Below the pieces are notes generated by a model. The model made no database searches, had not been told where the DNA came from, and worked only from the letters and a program-made list of their open reading frames with translations. A stretch of 50,095 nt of DNA from a virus (Duplodnaviria; Caudoviricetes), in the IMG/VR virus record IMGVR_UViG_3300033149_001537, positions 1 through 50,095 of that record. One strand, given 5' to 3'. Position 1 is the stretch's first letter, and the number at the start of each line of letters is the position of its first letter. Below, piece after piece: positions 3,999 to 46,177 of the stretch. Position numbers and translations under genes: made by a program.

Positions 3999-4164
3999 AT
4001 CATTCTTTTACTTCATTAAGCTAAAGTGGTACTTTAGGCTTGTGAAGGCTGAAATTATCATAAAAGTGCTGGATGGCAAAGCTATTCCTGCAAATTATTT
4101 CTGGCAACGGTTAGACTATATCATTAGAAAGAAGGGGAAGGTATATGAAAAAGTTCAAAGATGA
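3982..4164 (+). CDS. hypothetical protein
   Basis: short ORF overlapping its neighbours. Confidence 0.45.
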   Translation: MLKQVKSFFYFIKLKWYFRLVKAEIIIKVLDGKAIPANYFWQRLDYIIRKKGKVYEKVQR

Positions 4165-4381
4165 AGTGTACCGTGAGATGAACAAAATATTAAAAAACCC
4201 GGAAAAGAAACTGATTCGTGCATTCTTTGTGCAAAAGGAGCTATTGAAAAGCCCGCATGACTTACGTGACCAGGGTTATCTGCAAATGGAAACGATTGGT
4301 TGGGACACGATACCTGTATATGCCGTTAGGGGTATGGTAAACAAAGTAGAGGCTGAATACATAGACATTGCTCTGAAATAG
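4145..4381 (+). CDS. hypothetical protein
   Basis: GGGGAAGG RBS, 78 aa. Confidence 0.55.
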   Translation: MKKFKDEVYREMNKILKNPEKKLIRAFFVQKELLKSPHDLRDQGYLQMETIGWDTIPVYAVRGMVNKVEAEYIDIALK

Positions 4382-4389
4382 GGGGAATA

Positions 4390-4704
4390 ATGGCAAAAAG
4401 AGGTAGACCACCGAAAAAGAAAATTACTGAGTTATATTTGCAGTATGACATGGATAGAATAGTAGGTGAAGAATGGAAAACCCGATTTGACGAAATTCTT
4501 AATAAACGATATGTCGATGGGTGGAAATATGTGCCACCCTATTCCAGAATAGGAATAAGCGATAAATACAATAGCCAACTCTCACAGCCGGAAATAGTAT
4601 ATGGTGTGCTGTATGAGAGGCGTGTGGCAATAGAGATTGTTGCCCCAAGGGGAACGCTTATCGAACAGCCAATGAAGAAAAACAAATTTCAATTAGGGGA
4701 ATAA
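4390..4704 (+). CDS. hypothetical protein with N-terminal AT-hook-like KRGRP motif
   Basis: MAKRGRPPKK; GGGGG RBS. Confidence 0.6.
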   Translation: MAKRGRPPKKKITELYLQYDMDRIVGEEWKTRFDEILNKRYVDGWKYVPPYSRIGISDKYNSQLSQPEIVYGVLYERRVAIEIVAPRGTLIEQPMKKNKFQLGE

Positions 4705-7796: not shown

Positions 7797-7879
7797 AGAT
7801 GTTCTTGATATAAAAATATTACCAGAAGGATTGGAAGTGCCTAAATGCCTACAGGTATTAATTGAAAAAGGAGAAGAGT

Positions 7880-25388: not shown

Positions 25389-26504
25389 TTGATGCGAAAA
25401 ATCAGTTTAGACATAGGGTTTTCCCCCGGTGATATTGTTGTATTTACCCGCGCTATAAGAGATTTGTGCGTACAGTTTCCTGATTATGATGTAGAAATAA
25501 AAACTTGCTGCCCTGAAATATTCGAGAGCAATCCATACGTTAATAAAAAACCTAAAGTTAAAGAGCCTGAAGTTATTCCATTTGCAGACAATCTTACCAA
25601 TAACGGCTATGATGTTGCAGAAGTAGCTACTAATGCACAGGGCATATTCCACAAATTGATTAAAGAGCATAAATTGGGTGCTTATTTTAAAGATGGAAAT
25701 TGGTATTATCGTAAAGATGATATTGACTTCTTTTACTGCAAGCAGAAAGACCAGCCTGTTTTTGAGAGAGAAACATTTTCTCAAGTACAATATGAAGATA
25801 TTCATAGTTCGGGTTGGAGTGGAAAACATTTTTCAAGTGCATTTTATTCTGATTTAAATCAAAAATTAGGGATTAATATTAATCAGACTTCTTTATTACC
25901 TGATTTACACCTTTCAGAAAAGGAAAAGGGGTGGATTAGTCAGGTAGAGCAGGAATTTAATTATAAAGGAAAGTTTTGGTTAATATGCTCTGGGTATAAG
26001 TCTGACTATCCTCTGAAAGATTGGGGGTGGGAAAACTGGCAAAGGGTGGTATATCTTCTCAGGGATAAAATTCAATTTGTACAGGTTGGACAAACGGGTG
26101 CCGACCACACACACAATATTTTAGAGGGCACTTTAAATCTGTTGGGCAAGACAGACCTTAGACAGCTTATAAGACTCTCATATCATGCACAGGGCGGTTG
26201 TGGACACGTTAGCTTACTCCATCACCTCGTGGCTGCATGGCAGAAGCCTATGGTAACTGTGGCGGGTGGTAGGGAGCCTCGAAGATGGGAGAGTTATCCA
26301 CACATGAAATATATTGATACTAACGGACAATTGCCATGTTGTTCATTTGATGGATGTTGGTTAGATGGAAGAATGAAGGGTGAAGAAAATAAACACTGTA
26401 TAAATTGGGTAGGGAAAAAACCGCGTTGTATGGCAATGATTAAGCCGGAACGGGTGGCGCGGGAAGTATTAAACTATTATATTGGTGGTGTTTTAAAATT
26501 TTAG
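25389..26504 (+). CDS. glycosyltransferase, GT9 (heptosyltransferase-like)
   Basis: SPGDIVVFT, K.W..ENWQ, NLLGKTDLRQLI, HHLVAAWQKP.V motifs. Confidence 0.85.
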   Translation: MMRKISLDIGFSPGDIVVFTRAIRDLCVQFPDYDVEIKTCCPEIFESNPYVNKKPKVKEPEVIPFADNLTNNGYDVAEVATNAQGIFHKLIKEHKLGAYFKDGNWYYRKDDIDFFYCKQKDQPVFERETFSQVQYEDIHSSGWSGKHFSSAFYSDLNQKLGININQTSLLPDLHLSEKEKGWISQVEQEFNYKGKFWLICSGYKSDYPLKDWGWENWQRVVYLLRDKIQFVQVGQTGADHTHNILEGTLNLLGKTDLRQLIRLSYHAQGGCGHVSLLHHLVAAWQKPMVTVAGGREPRRWESYPHMKYIDTNGQLPCCSFDGCWLDGRMKGEENKHCINWVGKKPRCMAMIKPERVAREVLNYYIGGVLKF

Positions 26505-26513
26505 GAGGACGTT

Positions 26514-26747
26514 ATGAGTGGAGTAAACAGTAAGTTAAAAACCGCATTAGATTCACAGAAGTATTTTGTTACTATTAGTCATCGGGACAATAATAATCAA
26601 TTACAGCATTTTTGGGTTACAAAAAACTATCTCAAAGATGATTTAATGCCAACATTGGAGCATTTGAAAAAAGAGATTTATGGTCAAGAAATAAACAGTA
26701 GCGCCCAACAAGTTGAAGAAAGGGCCGGAAAGGCACATGGAGAATAA
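26514..26747 (+). CDS. hypothetical protein
   Basis: AGGAGG RBS, 77 aa. Confidence 0.6.
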   Translation: MSGVNSKLKTALDSQKYFVTISHRDNNNQLQHFWVTKNYLKDDLMPTLEHLKKEIYGQEINSSAQQVEERAGKAHGE

Positions 26748-27375
26748 ACTAGGCACTGTAATAAGCGTTGATGAGCTTATAAAAGCATTACAGCCCTATT
26801 CGGGTGGATGTGCTATCACTCCTTTGGATTTGGAATATGTATGTGATGAAGACACGAAAGAAACCAAAATAAAAATCAAATACTTCAACGACAACCTTAC
26901 GTTAGGACAGGTAAAGTCAATGATGGTAGACCCTTATGATGACTCCGAAAGTGCAGATAATGTGCTGGAAGAATGGGCTGTAGTAGCAAAACAGTATCAC
27001 ATTTCTTACGTTCTTGTGTGTGGGACGTGTCTTGGTCTTTACCGGGATAGCAAATATATTAAAGGCGACAACGATATTGATATTTGTATTAATGTCAAGG
27101 ATTTAGAGCAAACAATTAAAGCATTAAAAGAACGTGGTTTTCGGCTTGGAAGGCGGGGTGGTAGTCAGCATTTCATGAAAAATAATATTTTATTGGACGT
27201 ATGGCTAAAGCCTCGATTTGAACCGCCTTATACTTATGTTGAATACAAAAACAATCTCTATCCAGCACCGCATGATGTTGATAGATATTTAACTACCCTG
27301 TACGGGGATTGGCGTACACCTTCAGGACAATCTGCTAAAGAAGCAGTGTTCGGGGCTTATCGTGAAACAGTTTGA
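26713..27375 (+). CDS. LicD-family nucleotidyl/phosphotransferase
   Basis: GTCLGLYRD..I.GDNDIDI and YLTTLYGDWRTP motifs; start probably ATG 26737. Confidence 0.85.
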   Translation: MKKGPERHMENKLGTVISVDELIKALQPYSGGCAITPLDLEYVCDEDTKETKIKIKYFNDNLTLGQVKSMMVDPYDDSESADNVLEEWAVVAKQYHISYVLVCGTCLGLYRDSKYIKGDNDIDICINVKDLEQTIKALKERGFRLGRRGGSQHFMKNNILLDVWLKPRFEPPYTYVEYKNNLYPAPHDVDRYLTTLYGDWRTPSGQSAKEAVFGAYRETV

Positions 27376-28294
27376 GCCGGGAGTGCATAAGTTAATTCAT
27401 CATTTTGAGCATTTGGATGATATGCGGGAAGGATGTTCATATATAGCGCCTATTCATGTGTCTGTATGGCCCACCCTGAAGTGTCAGTTAAAATGCTCGT
27501 ATTGTTTATGTAGGAACGAAACCGGGGATGAGGAGCTTGATATTGAGCAATTTAAAAAGGCTGTGGATTTTTTAGCTGGTCATGGAACTAAAGCAATTGA
27601 ATGGTCTGGCGGGGGAGAGCCTTTGCTGTGGCAACATTTTGAAGAAGCGGTTAAGTATGTATTCAGTCAGAATATTAAAATGTCTCTTATCACTAACGGG
27701 CTGGAACTCAATAATCTCAGAGAGACACTTCTTATATATTTTGAGTGGATAAGAATAAGCGTTGTTTCAATGAAGCAGATAGAGGGTATTGATATTGAAC
27801 GGATAAAGAAGCATACGCGGGTGTCGCTTTCTCATATAATTCCAAGGAAACTTTATAGTAGTATTTTTGATATGTTAGATGAATTGCATGAATATTCAAA
27901 AACACACAATCTTATAACCCGAATAGCAATATCCCGACCGTCTGGGACAGAAAGCGAAAACGGGGTTGCTCTTAAAGTAAGCGAATATGGTGATCCGTTC
28001 TTTATGTCACACAAAGAGCCGGGAGAGCCAAAAGGCTGTTACATGGCATGGATAAGGGCGGCGATTGATTGGCGGGGAAATTTTCTACCCTGTCCGGCTG
28101 TAGAGTTGTCAGAAGAATCAGAAGGGTATATCCCTGATAAGTTTAAGCTATGCCATATAAGTGAGCTTGAAAAGTGGCTTTCCAGTGGTGCACATGATTT
28201 AGGTTTTCGGTGTTCATTCTGTAATTGTGGCAAAGAGATTAATGATTTTGTACATGAATTATTTACCGAAATTGAGGATGTGGATTTTGTCTAA
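27362..28294 (+). CDS. radical SAM protein with C-terminal SPASM/twitch-like cysteines
   Basis: CQLKCSYC, SGGGEP, LITNG; C-terminal C..CP..CSFCNC. Confidence 0.9.
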   Translation: MKQFEPGVHKLIHHFEHLDDMREGCSYIAPIHVSVWPTLKCQLKCSYCLCRNETGDEELDIEQFKKAVDFLAGHGTKAIEWSGGGEPLLWQHFEEAVKYVFSQNIKMSLITNGLELNNLRETLLIYFEWIRISVVSMKQIEGIDIERIKKHTRVSLSHIIPRKLYSSIFDMLDELHEYSKTHNLITRIAISRPSGTESENGVALKVSEYGDPFFMSHKEPGEPKGCYMAWIRAAIDWRGNFLPCPAVELSEESEGYIPDKFKLCHISELEKWLSSGAHDLGFRCSFCNCGKEINDFVHELFTEIEDVDFV

Positions 28295-28922
28295 ACGATA
28301 CACAGGTGATTTTTACGATGCTGATTATTTTGAGCGCGGCAAACAATCCGGGAAGGGTTGGTTGGAAAATTACCATTGGATGCCAAGGCGTTCTTTTAAA
28401 GAAGCATTTGCATTTGTGGACCATCTTGGTTTAGATGAATCAAATCATATATTAGATTTTGGATGTGCTAAAGGTTATTTGGCTACAGCTTTCAGGTTTT
28501 TGGATATACCTGCTGATGGATGTGATATTTCCTCTTATGCACTTGAATTTGCTCCTGCCTATTGTTGGAATTGCACAGAAGATAGCTCATGGGAAGGCCG
28601 GAAATATACTCATGTTGTCATAAAAGACGTATTAGAGCACCTTACAAAAGACCAGTTACCCGAAGTACTCGATAATATTGCAAAAGTAGCTCCTGTAATA
28701 ATGTGTGTTGTTCCTATGGGTGATAATGGGGTTTATAGAATACCTGAATATCATGTGGAAGTATCCCACCAAATAGCAGAAAGTGAATCGTGGTGGACAA
28801 GTGCATTTTCAAGATACGGATGGGAAGTTACTGACAGCCAATATCATATACCGGGGCTGAAAGATAATTGGTCGTATCATCTAACTGGAAATTGTGTATT
28901 TGTGCTTGAAAGGCAAAAATGA
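28227..28922 (+). CDS. class I SAM-dependent methyltransferase
   Basis: ILDFGCAKG, GCDIS, DVLEHL; start probably near 28287. Confidence 0.88.
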   Translation: MAKRLMILYMNYLPKLRMWILSKRYTGDFYDADYFERGKQSGKGWLENYHWMPRRSFKEAFAFVDHLGLDESNHILDFGCAKGYLATAFRFLDIPADGCDISSYALEFAPAYCWNCTEDSSWEGRKYTHVVIKDVLEHLTKDQLPEVLDNIAKVAPVIMCVVPMGDNGVYRIPEYHVEVSHQIAESESWWTSAFSRYGWEVTDSQYHIPGLKDNWSYHLTGNCVFVLERQK

Positions 28923-29695
28923 ACGTAGCAATATTCACAATAGTTAGAAACGAAAAATATTTTCTCCCTATATGGTTGAGACATTACTGTGGAGTTTTAG
29001 AGCAGGCAGATATATACATTATAGACAATGGAACGACTGATGGTAGTACCGACAATGTGGGCTGTCCCGTTATATTTAAAACGTCTAAAACGGCTCATAA
29101 TGCAAGGTGGATGCTTGAAACTGTTAAAGAATTTCAAAAGAAATTGTTGGAACGATATGATTATGTAGTATTTGCTGAAGCTGATGAATTAATTTTCCAC
29201 CGACATAATGAACTTTTTAAATATATAAAATATTGTGATAAAAATATTGTCCGGTGTGATGGATATGATGTTAAACAAATCCTTGGTAACAAGAAAAAGA
29301 AAATTGACAAAGAGCCTGAAATAAACCTCGAAAACCCTTTATTAAGCCAAAGAAAACGGTGGTATAGTAATACAAGATTCTGTAAGTCTCTGATAGCAAG
29401 AGTCCCGGTAAGGTGGGATATAGGGTTTCATCTATGCAAAAACCATTCCATTATTGACAAAGATATTGTACTTGCACACCTCCATAAGCTTGATATTGAT
29501 TTGGCATTAAAGAGAAATCTTGAAAGAATGAATATCACAATGGACAAAAAGTCTCAGATGACACGCAAGGGGTGGCAGAATTTCTTGAAAACTAAGGATG
29601 GTTTGGAAAAGTTTTGGGAAACCGGGCATAATGGTATGGGTAAGTATGAAGACATTCCTGATTGGATAAAAAAACATGAAATGCATTACTTTTGA
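28919..29695 (+). CDS. glycosyltransferase family 2-like
   Basis: TIVRNE..FL..WL.HY, IDNGTTDGS, EADE motifs. Confidence 0.85.
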   Translation: MNVAIFTIVRNEKYFLPIWLRHYCGVLEQADIYIIDNGTTDGSTDNVGCPVIFKTSKTAHNARWMLETVKEFQKKLLERYDYVVFAEADELIFHRHNELFKYIKYCDKNIVRCDGYDVKQILGNKKKKIDKEPEINLENPLLSQRKRWYSNTRFCKSLIARVPVRWDIGFHLCKNHSIIDKDIVLAHLHKLDIDLALKRNLERMNITMDKKSQMTRKGWQNFLKTKDGLEKFWETGHNGMGKYEDIPDWIKKHEMHYF

Positions 29696-30281
29696 TGATT
29701 TCCATAATTCTGTATACTGTATAGCGTTTCCTATATTTAAAAAATATAGAGTTCCTGGAACGGTGTTTGTAAATGGGGCAAACCTTGACTTGTTAGCTAT
29801 TAAGGAATTAAAAGAAATGCAGGGTGCAGGATGGGAAGTTTCTAGTCATGGAATGAACCACAAGAGATTGCCAATGCTTACGGCAAGAGAGATAAGATTG
29901 GAGCTTGAGGAAAACATTGACCTTCTCAGAGCTAATGGATTTACAGGTAAAGGCCTTGCATATCCCTGGGGAATGTATACCAATTCGGTGATTGATATAG
30001 TTAAGGAGTATCATACTTACGCAAGGGCAACGGTAGCCACAAGGCATTCTCACCATGAAGAAAAGTATCATATAAGAAGCACTGTTTTGAGCTGTAAAAC
30101 TATGCTTGAATCTGCGGTAAATTCTGAAAATAATTTTTATCACGGACACCATATAAGCTATGCAATCAACAGCCATTCATGGAGTCCGGACTGTTTAAGG
30201 TTATTAATAAAGGCATTGAAACATAAAGGAGAAAGGTTGATGACGGGTGGAGAATTTCATCGATGTAAAAATACCGTTTGA
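29676..30281 (+). CDS. polysaccharide deacetylase (NodB/CE4)
   Basis: ITFDD, SSHGMNH, LAYPWG motifs. Confidence 0.88.
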   Translation: MKCITFDDFHNSVYCIAFPIFKKYRVPGTVFVNGANLDLLAIKELKEMQGAGWEVSSHGMNHKRLPMLTAREIRLELEENIDLLRANGFTGKGLAYPWGMYTNSVIDIVKEYHTYARATVATRHSHHEEKYHIRSTVLSCKTMLESAVNSENNFYHGHHISYAINSHSWSPDCLRLLIKALKHKGERLMTGGEFHRCKNTV

Positions 30282-34613: not shown

Positions 34614-35549
34614 GTGAAATATACAAATATTCATAATTTGCCAGAATCTATTGCCAGTGCCTTAAGGGGTGATGATTATGATTTGTCTGATTCACCCAAC
34701 AACATTGTATCTGTTACGACGTTAATAGATGCACAACTTCCCAAGATACTCACGAAGAGACATTTTGATGAAATTGAAGTTGATGTATCTGATTCTGTGT
34801 GGAAATTATTTGGCAGTTCAATTCATCACGTTCTTAATATGAGTAATCAAGATAAGTCCGAACAGTTATCTGAGGAGCGGTGGTTCTTGGATGTGCAGAG
34901 CTTAGACGTTTATACTCTGAATATAGGTGAAAAGGTTATCGAGACAAAATGGTATGATTCAGAGAAGTGGTATGTTTCTGGCAAATTTGATAATTACATT
35001 AATGAGTCAATAGAGGATTATAAAGTTACATCAGTGTGGTCATATATATATTCACCAAAAGGAAAGCCAGAACACCATAATCAAATTAATATTAATGCAC
35101 TCGCATTGAAATTGCTTGGGTTTCCGGTAGATAGCGGTAGAATTATCATGATTTTACGGGACTTTATGAATAGCAAAGCCGGACAAGACAATTATCCTCA
35201 AATACCTATACAAACTATTAACATTCCATTAGTTGAAAATGAAAAAATAATTGACTATATCAATGAGCGTATTGGTTTATATAAAGCATGTTTTAAATTA
35301 TCTGACAACGAAATACCCGCATGTTTTCCAGAGGAAAGATGGTATCAAGAAGGGAAAGTTGCTGTAATGAAAGAGGGCCGGAAAAGTGCGGTGAAATTGT
35401 TTGCAGAATCAGAAAGAGAAGATGCAATTAAACATAAAGAATCATGCACGGGCGGTAAATTTTATTTGGAAGATCGCCCAGGTGTAAATCGTAGGTGTGA
35501 AGATTATTGCAGTTGTAATAGTTTTTGTTATTTTTACAAGGGGCTATAA
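34614..35549 (+). CDS. PD-(D/E)XK exonuclease (Cas4-like phage recombination nuclease)
   Basis: GSSIH, VSGKFD, IEDYKVTS, Q..IN, C-terminal RCEDYC..C; adjacent to ERF. Confidence 0.8.
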   Translation: MKYTNIHNLPESIASALRGDDYDLSDSPNNIVSVTTLIDAQLPKILTKRHFDEIEVDVSDSVWKLFGSSIHHVLNMSNQDKSEQLSEERWFLDVQSLDVYTLNIGEKVIETKWYDSEKWYVSGKFDNYINESIEDYKVTSVWSYIYSPKGKPEHHNQININALALKLLGFPVDSGRIIMILRDFMNSKAGQDNYPQIPIQTINIPLVENEKIIDYINERIGLYKACFKLSDNEIPACFPEERWYQEGKVAVMKEGRKSAVKLFAESEREDAIKHKESCTGGKFYLEDRPGVNRRCEDYCSCNSFCYFYKGL

Positions 35550-36130
35550 TGGAAGGGGCGCATAATATAAGCAAAAAGCTAATGACTATACAAAGCAAGC
35601 TGAATGCACCAAAGGGACAACATAATGATTTCGGACACTATGACTATCGGAGCAACGAGGATATTTTAAATGCTCTTAAACCACTCTTACTTGAACAGGA
35701 TACAACTATTGTTCAATCTGATGAAATGATACAATTTGGTGATAGGTATTACATTAAAGCGACATCAACCATTAGCTGCATAAATCAAGGTGGAGACATT
35801 TCAAATACAGCCTATGCCAGAGAATCTGAAACCAAAAAAGGAATGGACGCTGCACAAATAACAGGTAGCGCATCAAGCTATGCAAGAAAATATTCTCTTA
35901 ATGGATTGTTTGCTATTGATGATAGCAGGGATGCAGACACAACAGACAACAGAGAACAAAAGGAAGACGATAAGCCACCAAAAAAAGACATGCCTTGGCT
36001 AAATGAAGAAATGCCAGCATTTGCAAAAGCGAGAGAAGCTATCGGTAAAAACGAAAAAACATTAAGCGATATTCGGAAGGTATATAAAGTAAGTCGTGAT
36101 GTCGCGGAAAAATTGGAGTTGCCATTCTAA
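35549..36130 (+). CDS. erf: ERF-family single-strand annealing protein
   Basis: IQSKLNAPK, YRS.EDIL, GMDAAQITGSASSYARKYSLNGLF.IDD. Confidence 0.92.
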   Translation: MEGAHNISKKLMTIQSKLNAPKGQHNDFGHYDYRSNEDILNALKPLLLEQDTTIVQSDEMIQFGDRYYIKATSTISCINQGGDISNTAYARESETKKGMDAAQITGSASSYARKYSLNGLFAIDDSRDADTTDNREQKEDDKPPKKDMPWLNEEMPAFAKAREAIGKNEKTLSDIRKVYKVSRDVAEKLELPF

Positions 36131-36496: not shown

Positions 36497-36718
36497 ATGA
36501 AAACAACAACACAGAGAATCTATGCTGATGATATGGAGTGGGTGCAAAAATGCATGATGAAATTAAATATAAAATCATTTGCAAAATTTATCAGAAGGTT
36601 GAAAAAAGAAGTAAAATTACAACTGCAAAGGGAATTTTACAGTTCTCTCCCCCAGGTAGTAAACGGCAAAATTAAACCATTGAAAAATAAGAAGATAAAG
36701 AAAATGTATACAAAATAG
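36497..36718 (+). CDS. small basic, possibly ribbon-helix-helix protein
   Basis: MKTTTQRIY..D followed by helices. Confidence 0.5.
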   Translation: MKTTTQRIYADDMEWVQKCMMKLNIKSFAKFIRRLKKEVKLQLQREFYSSLPQVVNGKIKPLKNKKIKKMYTK

Positions 36719-36736
36719 AGGTGCAACCTTTGTATA

Positions 36737-36797
36737 GTTGGGATACAATCCCATCTAAGCTGTGAGTGCGAGATTAATTATAGAATTTTTTAATTTC
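36737..36797 (+). repeat. ~60-bp direct repeat, copy 1 (copy 2 at 40907-40965)
   Basis: GTTGG(G/A)ATACAATCCCATCTAAGCT(G/T)TGAG(T/C)GCGAGATTAATTATAGA..TTTTTAATTTC. Confidence 0.9.
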
Positions 36798-36816
36798 CTT
36801 TTTAAAGGAGGTCTTT

Positions 36817-36957
36817 GTGAAAACGTTTTTAGCAGTCTTAATAATTTGGGCGATAATATTTTTCTATCTAGTAGGGGTAAGGGTTGCCAAAGAAAATCCT
36901 GACGCGACATTAAGAGACGTAGTTCATGAAATAATGGATGGGAAATTAAAAAATTAA
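36817..36957 (+). CDS. 46-aa membrane protein (cassette gene, not in ORF track)
   Basis: AAGGAGG RBS, GTG start, MKTFLAVLIIWAIIFFYLVG TM helix. Confidence 0.65.
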   Translation: MKTFLAVLIIWAIIFFYLVGVRVAKENPDATLRDVVHEIMDGKLKN

Positions 36958-37015
36958 GATAATGGAACGCACAATGATTAGTATACAGATGGGAACGTGT
37001 ACTGAAGTACACTTG

Positions 37016-37144
37016 GTATCCCAACGGGGTTGCATTAAATCGAATGTTGATGAACGCTTAGCTGGGACAATACCCAACATTCGCAGCCAGAAATGTCAGA
37101 GGGAAATCACCTCTGCCACATCTGGCAATGCAACCCCGTTGTGT
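37016..37144 (+). repeat. attC-like hairpin
   Basis: CAACGGGGTTGCATT pairs with AATGCAACCCCGTTG; GTATCCCAAC complements cassette start GTTGGGATAC. Confidence 0.7.
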
Positions 37145-37178
37145 CAAAATTTTTAACTCTTTTAAATTGGAGTTGCTC

Positions 37179-37457
37179 ATGGACGCATTAAAAGCATTTA
37201 GTATAATTTCGGGTATGATGGATGAGTATGGTGTAGAGGCTGTTGAAGTTGGCGGTAATGGTAATATGGTGGAGGTCAGCGATATGCTAGAATCCATTCG
37301 CAAAGAATTAGAGGAGTCGTTAAAACCTTCGCACAACAAACAAAGTTTACAATTGCTTTCCGATATAAGTCGGTTTCGCCGTTCTCATCATATAGTTGGT
37401 ATCGGTGTGCATGCTGATGAAGTAAATGGTATCTTGGATAAAATAGCGCAACAATAA
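37179..37457 (+). CDS. hypothetical cassette protein
   Basis: GGAG RBS before ATG 37179; reads through the attC-like site (HNKQSLQLL). Confidence 0.6.
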   Translation: MDALKAFSIISGMMDEYGVEAVEVGGNGNMVEVSDMLESIRKELEESLKPSHNKQSLQLLSDISRFRRSHHIVGIGVHADEVNGILDKIAQQ

Positions 37458-37477
37458 CCGTTTGTCATACGTTGTAA
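37331..37477 (+). repeat. attC-like hairpin
   Basis: GCACAAC-AAACAAAG...TTTGTCATAC-GTTGTAA. Confidence 0.65.
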
Positions 37478-37523
37478 GAAATCGCGCTCTGTTGAGAGTG
37501 AGAATATTATAGGAGGAAACACA

Positions 37524-37709
37524 GTGAGAATTGTTAGATGTAGCGGGGCCCATATCTGTAAAGTATATGATTGTACACATTATAGAAACCACCAATGGAT
37601 GAAGTTTGGCAATGGTTTAAGTTGTTCTAATTGGGCTCGTTGCAGCTCATATAGAAAATGTAAAGTTAGATGTGTTTCCTCTAAAGAAAAGGTAGCTCAC
37701 CGTGAATAG
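37524..37709 (+). CDS. Cys-rich hypothetical cassette protein
   Basis: AGGAGG RBS, 61 aa. Confidence 0.6.
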   Translation: MRIVRCSGAHICKVYDCTHYRNHQWMKFGNGLSCSNWARCSSYRKCKVRCVSSKEKVAHRE

Positions 37710-37740
37710 CGTACATAGCGCCGTTCATTTTCATTCACTG

Positions 37741-37869
37741 ATTTCTTACAATGCGTTCACATCATTTCGAGTCGTGAATGTCCACAGAGCGGGACATCTC
37801 ACAACTCTCACAGGCTATCATTTTCAGGAAGAAACCCTGAAAACGACAGCCAATGTGAACGCATTGTGT
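37741..37869 (+). repeat. ~130-bp structured repeat (type B), copy 1
   Basis: near-identical to 39673-39806; terminal IR ACAATGCGTTCACAT/ATGTGAACGCATTGT. Confidence 0.9.
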
Positions 37870-37916
37870 AAAAATTATTGCTCTTTTATTTTATAAATCG
37901 TTCACTGGAGGTAATT

Positions 37917-38057
37917 ATGTATTGCAAACATAAGGTGTCTGGCGTATCAGGCGAAATGTTAGTGTGTGTCAATACTCTTCTGTTTCGTTATTATGCAAAT
38001 GGGTATCAAATTGTTGAGTTACCTAAATCTGATTTGGATGAATTTGAAGAATTATAA
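37917..38057 (+). CDS. 46-aa hypothetical cassette protein (not in ORF track)
   Basis: GGAGG RBS; MYCKHKVSGVSGEMLVCV... Confidence 0.6.
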   Translation: MYCKHKVSGVSGEMLVCVNTLLFRYYANGYQIVELPKSDLDEFEEL

Positions 38058-38094
38058 TCCGTTCACTTAACACTACGGAGTCGCAAGAATCATC

Positions 38095-38221
38095 ACACAA
38101 CACAGAAAGGTTGCCATTGCGGGGGCTATCGGATGTCACGCTTGGTAGGCGGTCAAGGACATGCAGCGATATCGAGTGCCGGTAGTCGCCCACAACAGCA
38201 ACCATTTCTGGAACGTTGTGA
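38095..38221 (+). repeat. attC-like hairpin
   Basis: ACACAAC-A-CAGAAA-GGTTGC...GCAACC-A-TTTCTG-GAAC-GTTGTGA with an extrahelical base. Confidence 0.7.
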
Positions 38222-38361
38222 ACAATAGGAGACTGCTTTTTTATTATAGGTTTTCATGTTTCCATTTGGCTGATGGGGAATGGCACCGATGGTTTACCTG
38301 ATAGCTAGGGTTAAACATGCTGTAAAAAAACCATTTGTAATATTGAGGCAGTCTCCTACAA

Positions 38362-38418
38362 TTCACAACAAACAAAGGTTCTAATCTTGCAGACTAAAAC
38401 CGTTTGTCAACGTTGTCA
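38362..38418 (+). repeat. compact 57-bp attC-like site
   Basis: TTCACAAC-AAACAAA-GGTT...AACC-G-TTTGT-CAAC-GTTGTCA. Confidence 0.75.
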
Positions 38419-38450
38419 ACAATAAATTTTTCACTGGAGGTTATAGCGCT

Positions 38451-38669
38451 ATGAATAAAGAAGATGTTTTATTATTAGTTGATTCTATCATGCACAAACA
38501 TGCGTCTGCTTATCGAAACGAGGCGCGCGAAATGGTTGAATCAAAATTTTCAATTGACAACAAACAAAGTGAATCATTGCTTTGTGGGGTCAGCGGTTGT
38601 GGTGCCCCGTTAGTTGGTGGGTATTGTCAAAAACACCTTGATTCAATCCATCAAAAATTATGTCGGTAG
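38451..38669 (+). CDS. hypothetical cassette protein
   Basis: GGAGG RBS; C-terminus encoded within the attC-like site (DNKQSESLLC). Confidence 0.65.
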   Translation: MNKEDVLLLVDSIMHKHASAYRNEAREMVESKFSIDNKQSESLLCGVSGCGAPLVGGYCQKHLDSIHQKLCR

Positions 38670-38752
38670 TAGCGCAACGATACACATTTGTCAACGTAGT
38701 CCGGCAATCACGCGGTCAGGTTAAGCCGCGTACGAATTATAGGAGAATTGCT

Positions 38753-38926
38753 ATGAAGCGTGAATTAAGAGGAGTACAGGTAACATGTAAAGCTGGTGTT
38801 TATTATTTGCATGAGATAGAATCTATAACAATTGATTGTCACTTAGGTAGTTTGATATTAACCAAAGATGAATTGTTAAACTATCTTGAAAATCGCAATT
38901 CTCAAGAGGTAGAGCCCCGTGATTAG
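38753..38926 (+). CDS. hypothetical cassette protein
   Basis: AGGAG RBS before MKRELRG within ORF 38660..38926. Confidence 0.6.
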   Translation: MKRELRGVQVTCKAGVYYLHEIESITIDCHLGSLILTKDELLNYLENRNSQEVEPRD

Positions 38927-39025
38927 AATACAGAGCGCCGTTCATTACCATTCACTGATTTCTTACAATGTGAACGCATTGTCGAAAATATCGGCTGAAC
39001 CATATTATAAAAGGAGCTTAACGTT

Positions 39026-39307
39026 ATGAGATATAAATGTAATTATTGTAACAATGAGCCATGTTATTTTGATAGTTCCACGCCAGACAATCTTAAACCG
39101 GGGCTGTGTCCAATAGTTAAACAGGATGGCGAAACCTTTGATGGTGTTGATTGGCAACCAGCTCCTTTAAAAGCGGAATCAGCCGAGAAATCCGACAACA
39201 AACAAAGTGAATCATTGCTTTGTCCGGAATGTAATAGTGATGATATTGCTGATCAACCAAATAAACGAAATCATTGTCGTAGTTGTGGTAATTGGTGGAA
39301 ACAATAG
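39026..39307 (+). CDS. Cys-rich hypothetical cassette protein
   Basis: AAGGAG RBS; DNKQSESLLCPEC..CRSC. Confidence 0.65.
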   Translation: MRYKCNYCNNEPCYFDSSTPDNLKPGLCPIVKQDGETFDGVDWQPAPLKAESAEKSDNKQSESLLCPECNSDDIADQPNKRNHCRSCGNWWKQ

Positions 39308-39402
39308 CGCAACGATACACATTTGTAAACGTTGTCTCAAATGCCCAACACTTGGGAGTGACATTATTATAGGCTCGGCTTAACATTAACAAAGGAATAA
39401 AA

Positions 39403-39639
39403 ATGTTTTCAGTTGCCCAGAAAAAACAGATTGCTGAAGCAGTCGAAAAAACACTTCTCAGTTTTAACCATCCTGAGATGCCAACCGAACGCCCATTTTT
39501 TAAATTGCATGTCACTGGAAACAATACTATGTCATGGGCTGATATCGAACCAAATTGGACATACGAAAATCGTGAACCGGGAGTTAATCCATTTAATGAA
39601 GCAGTCGCCGAGCAGATGAATGAAGGTCACCGTGAATAG
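39403..39639 (+). CDS. hypothetical cassette protein
   Basis: AAGGA RBS, 78 aa. Confidence 0.65.
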   Translation: MFSVAQKKQIAEAVEKTLLSFNHPEMPTERPFFKLHVTGNNTMSWADIEPNWTYENREPGVNPFNEAVAEQMNEGHRE

Positions 39640-39672
39640 CGTAAGTGTTGGAGTGTTCACATCCGTTCACTG

Positions 39673-39806
39673 ATTTCTTACAATGCGTTCACATCATTTC
39701 GAGTCGTGAATGTCCACAGAGCGGGACATCTCACAACTCTCACAGGCTATCATTTTCAGGAAAGTACCCTGAAAACGACAGCCAATGTGAACGCATTGTA
39801 AGAAAT
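39673..39806 (+). repeat. ~130-bp structured repeat (type B), copy 2
   Basis: perfect 22-bp IR ATTTCTTACAATGCGTTCACAT / ATGTGAACGCATTGTAAGAAAT. Confidence 0.9.
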
Positions 39807-39837
39807 ATTCACTTTTGAGAATTATAGGAGGGTTTTA

Positions 39838-40119
39838 ATGGCTAAAAAACAACGTTACTGTGTTCAACAATTTGCTGATGCGATGGAAAGACAACTTGCA
39901 GCAAACGATTATAAAGGTGGGTGGCTTGATGAAGAGGATGATTTTCTTTGGTCAAAATTATTAGAGGAAATTAGCGAGTTTCGGCAGGTCTGTGATGGTA
40001 AAAATACACCTCAAAGGGAACGCCGAATTTTAAAGGAAGCCGCTGATGCCGCTAACATTATTATGATGATAGCAGACAATCAGACATGGAGGGGAAACCC
40101 TCTATCAGAGGAAGCGTGA
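39838..40119 (+). CDS. MazG-like all-alpha cassette protein
   Basis: KGGW, LLEEISE, KEAADAAN pattern. Confidence 0.5.
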   Translation: MAKKQRYCVQQFADAMERQLAANDYKGGWLDEEDDFLWSKLLEEISEFRQVCDGKNTPQRERRILKEAADAANIIMMIADNQTWRGNPLSEEA

Positions 40120-40124
40120 ATACA

Positions 40125-40188
40125 TCTTACAACGCGCAAAGGCAAAAATTGATGGAGCCAACTTCTGCCCTTTGCGAACACGTTGGGA
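40125..40188 (+). repeat. attC-like site
   Basis: TCTTACAAC-G-CGCAAAGGCA...TGCC-C-TTTGCG-AACAC-GTTGGGA. Confidence 0.7.
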
Positions 40189-40227
40189 GAAATTCCGTTT
40201 ATGAACGATTATTATAAGGAGGTCTAA

Positions 40228-40548
40228 GTGAAATCAGTTGAAGCGCGGTATATGAATGATGCAGAGTTTCATGCATTAGTTGACATGATGGTTAAAATGA
40301 TATTTGATTATCAATATACTCCATCGGAAATGCGAGAGGCTGCGATGTTTGCCTGTGTAAAAGCCGAGATGATCCGACCTCCTGAATCTATGGTAGCATT
40401 GCGCTCCACAACTCCTAACACGACAAAGGCTACAATTGCAGTAAGTAAAGAACAGGCTATCAATTTTGCAACATGGTGGTATGGCCCGGAACAAAAGGGT
40501 AAAAATACCGCAGAGGGGTTTGATATCTGGTGGGCGCAACAGCACTAA
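40228..40548 (+). CDS. hypothetical cassette protein
   Basis: AAGGAGG RBS; overlaps the attC-like site 40412-40565. Confidence 0.65.
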   Translation: MKSVEARYMNDAEFHALVDMMVKMIFDYQYTPSEMREAAMFACVKAEMIRPPESMVALRSTTPNTTKATIAVSKEQAINFATWWYGPEQKGKNTAEGFDIWWAQQH

Positions 40549-40605
40549 TTTGCCGAACGTTGTCGAAAACTCCATCATTAAAACAATTATTATGAGGAGG
40601 CATTA

Positions 40606-40893
40606 ATGTCAATATGGGAATATTTGCGAATGCGGATACAGTCAGCGGAGTCTATTCTTGCCTCTGAAGAGTTGGCGGGGAATGTTCCGAAAGCGATGGC
40701 TGAGAAAGCCGCAATAGCTGAGTTGCGAGGGGTTGAGGATTTTTTAAACAATGCCTCCAAAAGCTCTGAGGTTCCAATACCGTGTGATAATATGAGTTGT
40801 GATAATTACTGTGACGATTTTGGAAACAACAATTGTGATAATAAAGATTTGTCTGATATCAGACGGTGTATAAATTATAGTCCGGAACGATAA
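40606..40893 (+). CDS. hypothetical cassette protein
   Basis: GAGGAGG RBS; Cys-rich C-terminus. Confidence 0.65.
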   Translation: MSIWEYLRMRIQSAESILASEELAGNVPKAMAEKAAIAELRGVEDFLNNASKSSEVPIPCDNMSCDNYCDDFGNNNCDNKDLSDIRRCINYSPER

Positions 40894-40978
40894 CCGTTTC
40901 TGGAACGTTGGAATACAATCCCATCTAAGCTTTGAGCGCGAGATTAATTATAGATTTTTAATTTCAAAGGAGAATAAC

Positions 40979-41143
40979 GTGGAGGCAATACAGATAGTGT
41001 GGGGAATTTCTACTATAGCATGGTTGGGAGTTTATATTATAAACAAATTTCAAAATCACGAATATTTTATAATGGCCCTATGTTCGTTAATCCTAATGAT
41101 ATTGAATGAAATTAAAAACAAAATAGGAACGCACAATGAATAG
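40979..41143 (+). CDS. 54-aa membrane protein (not in ORF track)
   Basis: AAGGAG RBS, GTG start, two hydrophobic segments. Confidence 0.55.
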   Translation: MEAIQIVWGISTIAWLGVYIINKFQNHEYFIMALCSLILMILNEIKNKIGTHNE

Positions 41144-41555
41144 CATACCAAAATCAAAACAGTTAGCATACCGGCACAAACGCAGGAATGGTACACCAGC
41201 CATTAAAGAAGATGCTTTACAGAAACAGGCTAATGACTACTTAGAATTGAAGCGAATACGTTATATACGGATACCGGATGCAATTTGGCGGTGGTTAGCA
41301 TATAAGGCAAGTGAGTACGTCAAAAAATGGTTTCGATTTATCTTCGGGGGGATTCCGGATAATATTTGTATTATTCCGATAAATGATAAATATAACTTGT
41401 GTCTTGCACTGGAACTGAAAACGAAGACGGGCAAGCTTCACGGTAAGCAGAAGCATTGGAGCAAAGATTTGGCAGTACAGATAAGCCGTACCCCCGAAGA
41501 CACTATGCAAATAATAGATGAATTTATAAACGAAGCAGAAAGGATGAAAACATGA
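41136..41555 (+). CDS. VRR-NUC-like nuclease
   Basis: E..LQ, GIPD, ALELKT..GKL..KQ..W. Confidence 0.8.
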   Translation: MNSIPKSKQLAYRHKRRNGTPAIKEDALQKQANDYLELKRIRYIRIPDAIWRWLAYKASEYVKKWFRFIFGGIPDNICIIPINDKYNLCLALELKTKTGKLHGKQKHWSKDLAVQISRTPEDTMQIIDEFINEAERMKT

Positions 41556-44976: not shown

Positions 44977-45968
44977 ACTTAATAAATAGAATTATTCCGG
45001 GTGATGTGCTCGAGGCCCTCCGGTTATTTCCTGATAATTTGGTACAAACAGTTGTTACATCCCCGCCTTATTGGGGATTGAGAGATTACGGGGTATCCGG
45101 GCAGTTGGGCCTCGAGCAAACTCCGGAGGAATATATTTCTAAATTAGTTGAGATATTTGAGGAAGTTAAAAGAGTGTTGCGCCATGATGGTACGGTGTGG
45201 CTGAATATGGGGGATAGTTATGCACAAGGTGGGCGCGGTGGTGCCTTTTCTGAGAAGTCTGCAAAACAAGCTACCAATTTTGGATCGCTGTTGGGTCCTA
45301 AAAAAGCACCTGTAGGAATGAAACCGAAAGATTTGTGTGGTATTCCGTGGATGGTGGCTTTTGCACTTCGAGCCGATGGCTGGTATCTCCGCTCAGATAT
45401 TATATGGTCAAAGCCTAATCCCATGCCTGAATCAGTGACAGACCGGCCAACGAAATCACATGAATACATATTCCTGCTAACCAGGTCACCGAAGTATTAC
45501 TATGATGCGGATGCAATTAAAGAAAAAGCAGAAACGGCGCCTAATGACAAATCAGGACATAAGTTCGGTGGTAAAAAAAATAATACCGTTGAGTATACAC
45601 ACTCGAACAAACCAGGAAAAAAATGGGTACCTGAATATGGTGGAGGTGGTTCTAATTTTAAAGGACATTCAGGAAACCAAGGCGCCGATGGTACTATCTA
45701 CATTTTAAGAAACAAGCGCACAGTATGGGAAGTAGCAACACACCCATATCCAGAGGCTCATTTTGCTGTATTCCCTGAGAAATTGATTAAACCTTGTATA
45801 TTAGCAGGGAGTCCTGAAGGTGGTTTGGTACTCGATTTGTTCATGGGGAGTGGCACGACTGCGCTGGTAGCAAAAAACCTTAACCGAAACTATGTAGGCA
45901 TTGAATTAAACGCTGAATATATAAAGATGGCAGAGAAAAGACTATCTCAAACGAGATTAGACATATAG
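44964..45968 (+). CDS. DNA methyltransferase, N4-C/N6-A beta class (orphan)
   Basis: VTSPPYW N-terminal, IIWSKPNPMPESVTDR, DLFMGSGTT C-terminal. Confidence 0.95.
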   Translation: MQQIDLINRIIPGDVLEALRLFPDNLVQTVVTSPPYWGLRDYGVSGQLGLEQTPEEYISKLVEIFEEVKRVLRHDGTVWLNMGDSYAQGGRGGAFSEKSAKQATNFGSLLGPKKAPVGMKPKDLCGIPWMVAFALRADGWYLRSDIIWSKPNPMPESVTDRPTKSHEYIFLLTRSPKYYYDADAIKEKAETAPNDKSGHKFGGKKNNTVEYTHSNKPGKKWVPEYGGGGSNFKGHSGNQGADGTIYILRNKRTVWEVATHPYPEAHFAVFPEKLIKPCILAGSPEGGLVLDLFMGSGTTALVAKNLNRNYVGIELNAEYIKMAEKRLSQTRLDI

Positions 45969-46177
45969 AAAGGCTGAAACAATGAACTGCGATAATTTTT
46001 TATGTACTAAGTGGAATGTTAAATGTACTGATTCGGATGGTGAGGGGTGAGTGGCTAGGTGTGATTCCAAAAAAACATTTGATACACTACAAAAATATTT
46101 ACGTGAATCATATCCAGAAACAAAAATAGTAATGCTAGTGCCGGTATGGAATGAATTAAAGGAAAGGGCTGTTTCTG

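Follow-up and report, generated by a model that had tools for sequence, protein, structure and literature searches.

The phage DNA analysed here (the window: 50,095 nucleotides, positions 1 to 50,095 of IMG/VR record IMGVR_UViG_3300033149_001537) carries, between 36737 and 40906, 12 co-oriented units of 197-464 bp each. These probably form a small-gene cassette array bounded by previously undescribed attC-like sites, which would recombine as folded single-stranded DNA with an enzyme supplied in trans. The parts of a cassette follow one another in the order head, small ORF, box, unpaired bases, hairpin and spacer. The head begins with GTTG and holds a 5′ leader and a ribosome-binding site, and the box, with CAAC at its end, is complementary to the head of the same cassette. 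One or two unpaired bases separate the box from an imperfect hairpin of 17-20 bp, whose 7-200 nt loop often contains the stop codon and codes a C-terminal tail rich in Cys, and a spacer of 4-5 nt with AAC at its end completes a conserved AAC|GTTG step. Several units have an ORF that crosses the left arm and stops either within the right arm or shortly ahead of it. The motifs are concentrated in the array: six of the nine window copies of a 7-nt junction word lie within 38.2-40.9 kb. Unit 0 has no own head and abuts the conserved backbone outside the array, to which the exonuclease and Erf-like genes belong (Table 1). A sequence-only reading had described about 11 units of roughly 200-470 bp separated by AAC...GTT hairpins; the units number 12, three of them have AAT/ATT junction triplets instead, and the site of unit 7 is truncated.

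Table 1. Features of the array and its flanks. The first position of units 1-12 and of the right boundary is the first base of a head; R1 is a covariance model built from other phages.
Feature	Position	Length (bp)	Strand	ORF or gene	Own-head rank among 13	Site and remarks
Left flank	34614-35549		+	PD-(D/E)XK-type exonuclease, PHROG 2139, E 3.5e-45
Left flank	35525-36130		+	Erf-like annealing protein, PHROG 155, E 5.7e-42
Unit 0	36497-36736		+	73 aa, 36497-36718		weak candidate site 36617-36736, no detection by R1; parsed by eye
Unit 1	36737-37137	401	+	46 aa, 36817-36957	1	subtype b; 15-nt perfect arms 37022-37036 and 37127-37141, 90 nt apart; box ends 37025, complementary to unit 1 head
Unit 2	37138-37470	333	+	92 aa, 37179-37457, crosses left arm	1	37329-37482; box ends 37337; R1 E 3e-07, minus strand
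Unit 3	37471-37862	392	+	61 aa, Cys-rich, 37524-37709	1	subtype b; box ends 37752; arms 37748-37762 and 37853-37867; 37723-37867 duplicated at 39655-39799 (unit 9 3′ part), 95%
Unit 4	37863-38214	352	+	46 aa, 37917-38057	1	38093-38226; E 7e-08 and 37 bits, highest-scoring R1 match in window; ORF followed within site by a frame that looks decayed
Unit 5	38215-38411	197		no convincing gene; just a 34-aa frame, 38280-38384	identity 18/21	short site 38362-38423, R1 E 6.5e-05; 32-nt head/tail arms 38215-38246 and 38338-38369, 78% complementary
Unit 6	38412-38695	284	+	72 aa, 38451-38669; Cys-rich C-terminal part falls in site loop	1	about 38554-38700; R1 not significant; left arm 38556-38585 identical to 39194-39223
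Unit 7	38696-38977	282	+	57 aa, 38753-38926	13 (last)	subtype b, 38958-38989; truncated, without left arm and loop; head off consensus
Unit 8	38978-39330	353	+	93 aa, 39026-39307; zinc-ribbon-like C-terminus in site loop (Pfam zinc-ribbon matches weak, below cut-off)	1 (16/21)	39191-39342; R1 E 0.0048
Unit 9	39331-39794	464	+	78 aa, 39403-39639	7	subtype b, 39673-39806; 22-nt perfect arms, paired with the next head
Unit 10	39795-40181	387	+	93 aa, 39838-40119; PHROG 18269 (function unknown)	1 (17/21)	short site 40125-40193; loop 7 nt; R1 E 3.1e-05
Unit 11	40182-40558	377	+	106 aa, 40228-40548	2	weak, about 40412-40570; box ends 40419; R1 just E 2.6
Unit 12	40559-40906	348	+	95 aa, 40606-40893; blastp 39% to ORF within G001 array		degenerate; right arm and junction, no recognisable box; by eye
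Right boundary	40907-41555		+	54 aa, 40979-41143; then VRR-NUC-like gene 41136-41555 (Pfam VRR_NUC E 7e-4, below cut-off)		head 13 (40907-40959) copies head 1 at 92%; first bases of VRR-NUC-like gene also copied at 36964-36986

The relation between a unit's first bases and its own downstream site carries much of the argument. All six head/tail complements that had been picked out by eye are present where they had been placed, as exact matches of 10 nt (36737/37016), 12 nt (37472/37740), 8 nt (38215/38362, 38412/38554 and 39796/40125) and 6 nt (38979/39193). The complementarity is longer than had been noted, often in two segments flanking a small internal loop, and in unit 5 it extends over 32 nt at 78%. 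Among the 11 units compared (unit 12, whose box is not recognisable, was left out), the own head is the best match for the 21-base box, ranking first of 13 heads, in 8, the exceptions being units 7, 9 and 11. Summed box-head identity is 142 for own heads and 90 for the next heads in the array, and none of 200000 permutations of the heads, which gave a mean of 94.9 (sd 7.2) and a maximum of 135, reached 142, which bears out the claim that most units start with the complement of their own site. The rule extends to 20 units of other phages, where identity over 20 nt is 12.8 with the own head and 8.45 with the next (0 of 20000 random-head draws reach the observed sum; Wilcoxon p 7e-4) and individual head/box pairs rise to 17-18/20. 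When a circle is closed in silico at AAC|GTTG, box and own head lengthen the hairpin by up to ~20 bp. Cassettes may thus enter and leave as circles through strand exchange at AAC|GTTG, and own-head complementarity would be a relic of that exchange. Units 7, 9 and 12 break the unit rule, and we count them against this explanation.

The strand that folds is the one antisense to the genes. Read on the top strand, the 46 L stems of the site family contain 72 A.C and 11 G.T mismatches (p 4e-12; the sites are related, so that the counts are not independent events), against 465 and 433 in 426 control stems. The asymmetry is also seen outside the two fixed positions (23 vs 5) and in the R stems (13 vs 3), and the two fixed mismatches of the hairpin are G.T wobbles solely on the strand antisense to the genes. 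It follows from these mismatches that the bottom strand folds. The same features bear on a reading that we consider improbable, in which the hairpins act as RNA or in expression, through an antisense transcript or as processing, stability or translational-control stems closing cistrons, with exchange as a by-product. Protein-recognised RNA helices typically contain fixed tandem G.U-type pairs and bulges, conserved tandem G.T pairs being more characteristic of RNA helices than of DNA hairpins, and the way the stems close whole cistrons resembles the processing stems around ribosomal RNAs; the leader and ribosome-binding site held by the heads, some of which recur on different ORFs, would also fit. 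However, every gene lies antisense to the favoured strand, so the mRNA has A.C mismatches at the wobble places. Over the array there is no evident minus-strand promoter or gene, neither sigma-70-like sites (35 vs 26.5, sd 6.0) nor terminator-like sites (7 vs 4.9, sd 2.1) are enriched, and an Rfam search of the region matched no family. Nor does an RNA role explain why homology between unrelated phages stops at both junctions, as described below.

The sites constitute a family present in 10 IMG/VR phage records that are otherwise very dissimilar. A gapped motif scan of IMG/VR yielded 22 loci, 9 of which were judged true sites, and the covariance model R1 was built from 11 sites, all from other phages. 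With E<=0.005 as the limit, R1 finds five sites in the window; each lies within the array on the minus strand, and the next match has E 0.064. The array records give 44 matches, 11 of them training sites, whereas 1.18 Mb of control phage DNA in 100 loci gives one. Stems vary in sequence around a constant pattern of 5-6 pairs, a 1-3-nt bulge and two mismatches, with double changes in 6 of 11 modelled pairs. Since ORFs traverse the sites, with a conserved linker peptide encoded by the left arm, sequence conservation of the sites is partly coding. Arrays of the family hold 6-13 sites; for phage CALINs only a minimum of two each is stated (PMC9892861).

The likeness to integron cassettes and CALINs is extensive. 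The array is co-oriented, its units carry single small ORFs, and the element contains no integrase; the sites are imperfect inverted repeats of variable sequence and conserved structure that end in AAC and GTT, with two paired boxes split by unpaired bases, a variable loop and a folded strand antisense to the genes, and the first bases of a unit complement its own site, as expected from exchange at GTT. Unlike attC, the sites pair head with box to about 20 bp, with a fixed internal loop, and array ORFs cross the left arm and place C-terminal modules in the loop. The 7-nt attC core consensus fits 2 of 46 family heads and none of the 13 window heads, the two that fit belonging to a second site type in record G001 whose boxes also fit the canonical core; 44 of 46 heads retain the AAC/GTT triplets. 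One arm has an unpaired spacer of 1-2 nt and the other one of 4-5 nt, where canonical attC sites have 5-6 nt on both (PMC5027507), and the bulge is found across the stem from where attC carries its extrahelical bases, namely on the arm with AAC of the folded strand. With the core consensus missed, an asymmetric spacer and a bulge on the opposite arm, recognition by a known IntI is doubtful.

We regard it as rather unlikely that the array is an ordinary CALIN of genuine host-type attC sites, whose cassettes the host IntI captures from, and trades with, an integron on the host chromosome. The retained triplets, R/L box layout, variable loop, bottom-strand folding and own-head rule all follow integron logic, the second site type of G001 fits as well, and CALINs have been reported in virulent phages, where IntI1 recombined 5 of the 6 attC sites tested (Qi et al. 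2023, PMC9892861). The window phage's terminase also resembles clusters found most often in the integron-rich phylum Pseudomonadota, which we treat as a lead only. Apart from the consensus, spacer and bulge, what weighs on the other side is that Tetrasphaera phage TJE1, which has CALIN sites validated with IntI1, gives no R1 match, and that 10 very different backbones, none with intI, share the family's sites.

In the preferred reading, with attC-like sites of a separate kind, the enzyme is expected to act in trans because the phages encode no recognisable recombinase: PF00589 is absent from all 10 array-bearing records, in keeping with the earlier statement that no tyrosine recombinase was recognised in the window. 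It would probably be a host tyrosine recombinase that uses folded single strands, of the IntI or XerCD type, or else something not yet known. Apart from IntI, XerC and XerD alone among tyrosine recombinases are known to act on both single- and double-stranded substrates (PMC5027507). As in pdif modules and CTX phage, the units are bounded by inversely oriented half-sites with alternating junctions and may depend on a trans-acting host recombinase. In the pdif (XerC/XerD) modules of Acinetobacter plasmids, half-sites are inversely oriented and successive junctions alternate in orientation; there, as in CTX phage, a host housekeeping recombinase acts in trans, and the attP of CTX phage is formed when two inverted sites fold in single-stranded DNA and are used by XerCD. 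Unlike pdif, the two junction kinds here are not exact inverted copies, and the array sites are far above 28 bp. IS200/IS605 elements also carry hairpins on one strand, with pairing that joins the cleavage points and excision as a single-stranded circle. One-strand imperfect hairpins and base pairing that joins two ends recur in the array, where, unlike in IS200/IS605, ends differ from unit to unit and units lie in tandem.

Comparison of cassettes across phages provides a separate line of evidence. No protein cluster is common to more than 4 of 9 records. Searches brought up no near-identical relative, neither excision, circles nor cassette gain or loss was seen, and only one large shared cassette was found, which weighs against the preferred reading; it lies between G001 (36500-36853) and G010 (4137-4487), with 359 nt at 85.5% identity. 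Its homology begins and ends at both junctions, the flanks being about 27% identical; the two records have no other meaningful DNA similarity, and their backbone proteins are 40-60% identical and lie in opposite orientation relative to the array. A shared cassette ending at both junctions supports exchange at the AAC|GTTG step. Together with the own-head rule and antisense-strand folding, it upholds the earlier description of an integron-like array without an integrase; that observation as a whole is confirmed, and is stronger than first described, by these comparisons and by a covariance model from other phages finding window sites inside the array. Its interpretation is supported in part, for the cassette array but not for shuffling of early accessory genes by a host IntI in trans.

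Shared pieces could also reflect sites that serve as linkers, at which co-infecting phages would recombine by homology or microhomology using the phage Erf and exonuclease, but we hold this to be very improbable. It would resemble the PeSL of T4-type phages, where repeated intergenic motifs surround small orphan ORFs in a hyperplastic region and modular shuffling without a dedicated recombinase has been proposed in published reports (PMC2839356, PMC4122927). Erf and exonuclease genes adjoin the array in the window and in G001, and conserved pieces of 30-150 nt recur among units. Yet ERF was found in just 1 of 5 other array records tested, less than about 10 nt is common to both sides of the G001/G010 breakpoints, and linkers give no reason for inverted-complement unit ends or strand-asymmetric mismatches. 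PeSL are described in the same reports as composite promoter and terminator motifs acting through homologous recombination (PMC2839356, PMC4122927), whereas neither signal is found at the junctions here, breakpoints are nearly without flanking homology, and the structure is strand-specific.

Exchange at a coding linker is seen in one further record, a point in favour of linkers. The tail and left arm of unit 2 match G012 (locus L181) over 34 nt at 97%, and a different C-terminal module follows, so that the N-terminal part of window ORF 2 is fused to another C-terminal module. Exchange therefore occurs also at the other junction, which the simple integron model does not predict. Some heads stand in front of different ORFs, as with heads 13 and 1, and 40404-40439 in unit 11 matches record G006 over 36 nt at 94%.

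The array is built of units in a fixed order, in which a head (a leader and strong ribosome-binding site) is followed by a small ORF, a box able to pair with that head, a hairpin and, after a short spacer, the junction, where AAC meets GTTG. Thirteen unit starts could be placed in the window, giving 12 units of 197-464 bp that carry one ORF each (46-106 aa), with the exception of unit 5, which has no convincing gene. Words of the sites are local to the array, which has six of the nine window copies of a 7-nt junction word and, for a 13-nt left-arm word, all four exact occurrences. Two subtypes of site close the units (see table). In subtype b, perfect arms of 15-22 nt stand exactly 90 nt apart around two inner hairpins, and the element replaces the ordinary site; the inner hairpins of the unit 1 element differ in sequence from those of units 3 and 9 and have the same shape, and none of these elements has a match in Rfam. 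Head 13 is a copy of head 1 (92% over 53 nt), and the end of unit 1 has a copy of a 23-nt piece that includes the start codon of the downstream VRR-NUC-like gene. A diverged direct repeat, made up of these duplications, thus frames the array. One site is truncated, its box running straight into the right arm as though a deletion across the hairpin had removed the left arm and loop.

Coordinates of the array, its sites and flanking genes, and of side features in other records (L-numbers are retrieved loci)
Feature	Location	Remarks
Exonuclease/Erf pair	window 34614-36130	left flank of array
VRR-NUC-like gene	window 41136-41555	right flank of array
Framing direct repeat	window 36737-36986 and 40907-41148	diverged
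Head 13	window 40907-40959	
Copied start of VRR-NUC-like gene	window 36964-36986	
Subtype a sites	units 2, 4, 5, 6, 8, 10; weakly 11, 12	arms 17-20 nt, loops 7 to ~115 nt
Subtype b sites	units 1 (37022-37141), 3 (37748-37867), 9 (39673-39806); unit 7 truncated	~120 nt
Truncated site	window 38958-38989	
Left arm as linker	window 38556-38585, 39194-39223; L167, L168, L170, L172, L177, L181, L184	single fixed frame
Protease-capsid fusion	window 7862-10174	770 aa; head maturation protease + major capsid protein
Putative modification gene cluster	window 25389-30281	
Sole control match of model R1	L005 11997-12142	
Second site type, record G001	L008 13743-13985, 14287-14557, 15214-15349, 16447 onward	
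Insertion, record G005 against G010	G005 45797-46093 (L195-L197)	300 bp

The boxes are complementary to the heads of their own units. All six head/tail complementarities quoted in the sequence-only reading are present at the positions it gives, and the pairing extends beyond them, often as two segments flanking a small internal loop and over 32 nt in unit 5. For 11 units the end of the box was set from the position of the adjacent hairpin, independently of the head, and the reverse complement of each box was scored over 21 bases against every one of the 13 heads. In 8 of these 11 units the best of the 13 was the unit's own head. Identities to the own heads add up to 142, compared with 90 when each box is paired with the next head and 94.9 (sd 7.2) when heads are permuted; a sum of 142 was attained in none of 200,000 permutations (a cruder preliminary test gave p ~0.001). 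The own head ranked 13th, 7th and second in units 7, 9 and 11, respectively, and unit 12 has no box. The same rule holds in other array-bearing phages, where identity over 20 units was 12.8 for own heads versus 8.45 of 20 for the next head; the observed sum was attained in 0 of 20,000 random draws. Single head/box pairs match at as many as 17-18 of 20 bases, and a two-base internal loop is fixed in them. Complementarity between the start of a cassette and its own site, the mark of chimeric sites formed by exchange at GTT, is thus a feature that these arrays have in common with attC sites.

The hairpins are asymmetric between strands. Our detector listed 46 sites in the arrays of nine records, and their stems follow a stereotyped order of five to six pairs, a bulge of 1-3 nt in the 3′ arm of the top strand, four to five pairs, a mismatch, two pairs, a second mismatch and four to five pairs. 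Transition mismatches read on the gene strand numbered 72 A.C versus 11 G.T (p 4e-12), a count in which the sites are related, so that the 72 mismatches are not independent events, and in which the direction is uniform across the nine records. On the antisense strand the same 72 are G.T wobbles. Control stems from the same detector (n=426) gave 465 versus 433, and the bias is also seen outside the two fixed mismatch positions (23 versus 5) and in the head/box stems (13 versus 3). It is thus the strand antisense to all genes whose structure is conserved, an observation that favours single-stranded DNA over a role in mRNA; that the hairpins function as antisense RNA is a less likely explanation of the same asymmetry. 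Folding of the bottom strands with DNA parameters, a check proposed along with the integron-like reading, found the bottom strand more stable at 7 of 10 window sites. Bottom-strand folding as known from attC is present here as a folding preference only.

Sites of the same family occur in otherwise unrelated phages. A relative whose exonuclease is 39% identical carries a similar array behind its Erf gene, and scanning IMG/VR with a gapped motif brought up 22 loci, 9 of which were kept as true sites on reading; the other 13, which fall in unrelated sequence such as an ABC-transporter region, were set aside. A covariance model, R1, was built from 11 short sites of other phages, each taken as its bottom strand and none lying in the window. 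R1 matches 5 of the 12 junction sites of the window at E-values of 7e-08 to 0.005, all in the array and on the minus strand; the next match in the window has an E-value of 0.064, three further junction sites match weakly, and the subtype b sites of units 1, 3 and 9 are unmatched. The array records yielded 44 matches, including the 11 training sites, and 100 other phage loci (1.18 Mb) yielded one at E<=0.01. This sole control match lies just 3′ of the exonuclease gene of its phage, beside two junction-like words, and may belong to a small array. An exact search of IMG/VR with a 26-letter site pattern gave no match, nor did Rfam, which is without any attC family, at gathering scores or relaxed E-values, and literature searches on such arrays turned up no description of this site family. 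A generic scan for runs of exact inverted repeats that abut one another was too noisy to use, its longest chain, 8 against a null maximum of 7, lying outside the array.

As defined in PMC5027507, an attC site is an imperfect inverted repeat with AAC and GTT triplets at its outer limits, a 7-nt core and inverse core consensus, and R and L boxes kept apart by an unpaired spacer of ~5-6 nt in each arm; its extrahelical bases stand near L'', across the stem from the AAC that is cleaved in the folded bottom strand; the bottom strand is folded and active, and sites measure 57-141 bp with a variable terminal structure. Our sites share with attC the outer triplets, with CAAC/GTTG pairs invariant in the site alignment (A2), as well as two paired boxes, a variable loop, bottom-strand folding and the own-head signature. 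GTT begins 44 of the 46 family heads, a figure that is partly by construction as the detector allowed three start words, and 9 of the 13 window heads, the others being ATT (three) and GTA (one). Unlike attC, only 2 of 46 family heads and none of the 13 window heads fit the 7-nt core consensus; the spacer is asymmetric, with 1-2 nt in the 5′ arm versus 4-5 nt in the 3′ arm at 41 of 46 sites; and the bulge, which follows pair 5-6 in 29 of 36 cases in the 3′ arm, sits on the opposite arm from that of attC, as the 3′ arm of the top strand is the AAC arm of the bottom strand. Loops span 7-202 nt (median 76.5) and the distance from 5′ arm to junction is 40-235 nt, such that short sites fall within the attC range and long sites exceed it and carry coding sequence. 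With core, spacer and bulge departing from the definition, canonical attC membership is not shown. We regard an integron-like mechanism as the best available reading of the array, and as a moderately probable one.

The statement that no tyrosine recombinase is recognised in the window was borne out and extends to the family, since PF00589 is absent from all 10 array records, three of which are complete. The arrays are accordingly free of an integrase, as CALINs are, and whether they deserve that label hinges on accepting the sites as attC. Integrase-less phage attC clusters are known: PMC9892861 gives 17, with at least two sites each, reports that IntI1 recombined 5 of 6 phage attC sites tested, and places a CALIN in Tetrasphaera phage TJE1. 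R1 had no match in TJE1. This 49-kb virulent phage (L210) resembles the window in general make-up, with genes nearly all on one strand, Erf and exonuclease, methyltransferases and glycosyltransferases, and long gaps between.

Evidence of exchange at the junction comes from two other array-bearing records, G001 and G010, whose backbone proteins are only 40-60% identical and are encoded in opposite orientation relative to the arrays. Their sole substantial DNA match, 359 nt at 85.5% identity, is one cassette from junction to junction: identity rises from ~27% to >90% at the first junction and drops again at the second, and within the cassette both arms are conserved and the loop interior is diverged. 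The sequence common to both sides of each breakpoint is shorter than ~10 nt, a misfit to homologous recombination. This bears on the closest integrase-free idea, the PeSL motifs of T4-type phages, described (PMC2839356, PMC4122927) as a composite early promoter and terminator stem-loop that serves homologous recombination. Our sites differ in their short breakpoint sequence and in lacking promoter or terminator enrichment. Sigma-70-like promoter sites numbered 35 against 26.5 (sd 6.0) expected and intrinsic-terminator-like sites 7 against 4.9 (sd 2.1), and neither is placed at junctions; we therefore rejected both as identities for the sites.

Exchange may also happen at a second junction. The ORF of several units does not stop at the left arm, where it encodes a short linker, but runs on into the loop with a Cys-rich tail and terminates within the right arm or shortly before it. 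At many sites, in the window and at seven other loci, the left arm codes a short conserved linker in a single frame, and the loops that follow it encode unrelated Cys-rich, zinc-ribbon-like C-terminal tails, which looks like in-frame exchange of small C-terminal modules. Another array record (G012, locus L181) has the tail of window ORF 2, together with the left arm, attached to a different C-terminal module, and units 3 and 9 have their 3′ parts in common, hinting at exchange at this junction too. Pfam gave nothing over cut-off for the cassette ORFs, PHROGs matched 1 of 10, to a family of unknown function, and tblastn found no homologues in 161 other loci.

Among retrievable genomes no excision product, circle or population variant was seen. 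A metagenome scan with an exonuclease alignment returned 80 loci, all <=46% identical to the query (41-43% for the four best by E-value), so near-identical variants for comparing cassette order were not available from it. The only near-identical pair of records, G005 and G010 (99.97%), overlaps over just the first kb of the array. G005 differs from G010 by an insertion that does not belong to the R1 family of cassettes; it is flanked by an 8-nt direct repeat and contains a long pyrimidine-rich stretch and a promoter-like hexamer pair. DNA searches of the array region, near and distant, against 50,697 phage records gave no match, and single-protein scans for relatives found none through the exonuclease or ORF 11 and, through ORF 10, one 40% match with no sites around it.

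As to the enzyme, the array records have almost no proteins in common, and no protein cluster is present in more than four of nine; a common phage-encoded enzyme was rejected at the BLAST level on this basis. A link to ERF was likewise rejected, ERF being present in only 1 of 5 other array records tested. A less probable alternative to an integron-like mechanism, yet one with a real chance, is a separate single-strand recombination system. In its full form, of about the same probability, phages would carry an exchange system distinct from integrons, with sites that take up their fold on the antisense strand, mirror attC in build and are served by a ubiquitous host enzyme (e.g. XerCD) or an unknown activity instead of IntI; it would move whole early genes between unrelated phages, and the second junction would swap in-frame zinc-ribbon modules at the C-terminus. 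If so, phages would possess a built-in shuffler of accessory genes and their domains, and an enzyme other than IntI would imply a second family of structure-specific single-strand recombination sites, relevant to phage evolution, the spread of anti-defence genes and sequence-unconstrained recombination tools. How phages gain and turn over small orphan genes of the early region is a long-standing question, as is the origin of integron cassettes and attC-type sites. R1 provides a defined, searchable signal marking exchangeable genes in unrelated phages, and the arrays offer a concrete junction with past exchange, along with short sites suited to recombination assays.

The record itself, 50,095 bp and a whole virus record estimated to be complete, looks like that of a phage whose tail is long and non-contractile. 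It encodes a GpA-type large terminase, portal, protease-capsid fusion and tape measure, with nearly all long ORFs on the plus strand and no tRNAs, and its capsid protein is ~27% identical to capsids of cultured phages. One cluster comprises a family-9 glycosyltransferase, LicD-like, radical SAM and methyltransferase genes, a family-2 glycosyltransferase and a polysaccharide deacetylase, and may modify a surface or the DNA; a protein scan of genome contigs with the window glycosyltransferase gave a match at 24% identity only. The G001 array contains, in addition, a second site type whose heads and boxes fit the canonical integron core, and in one case a whole small ORF, ribosome-binding site included, sits in the loop.
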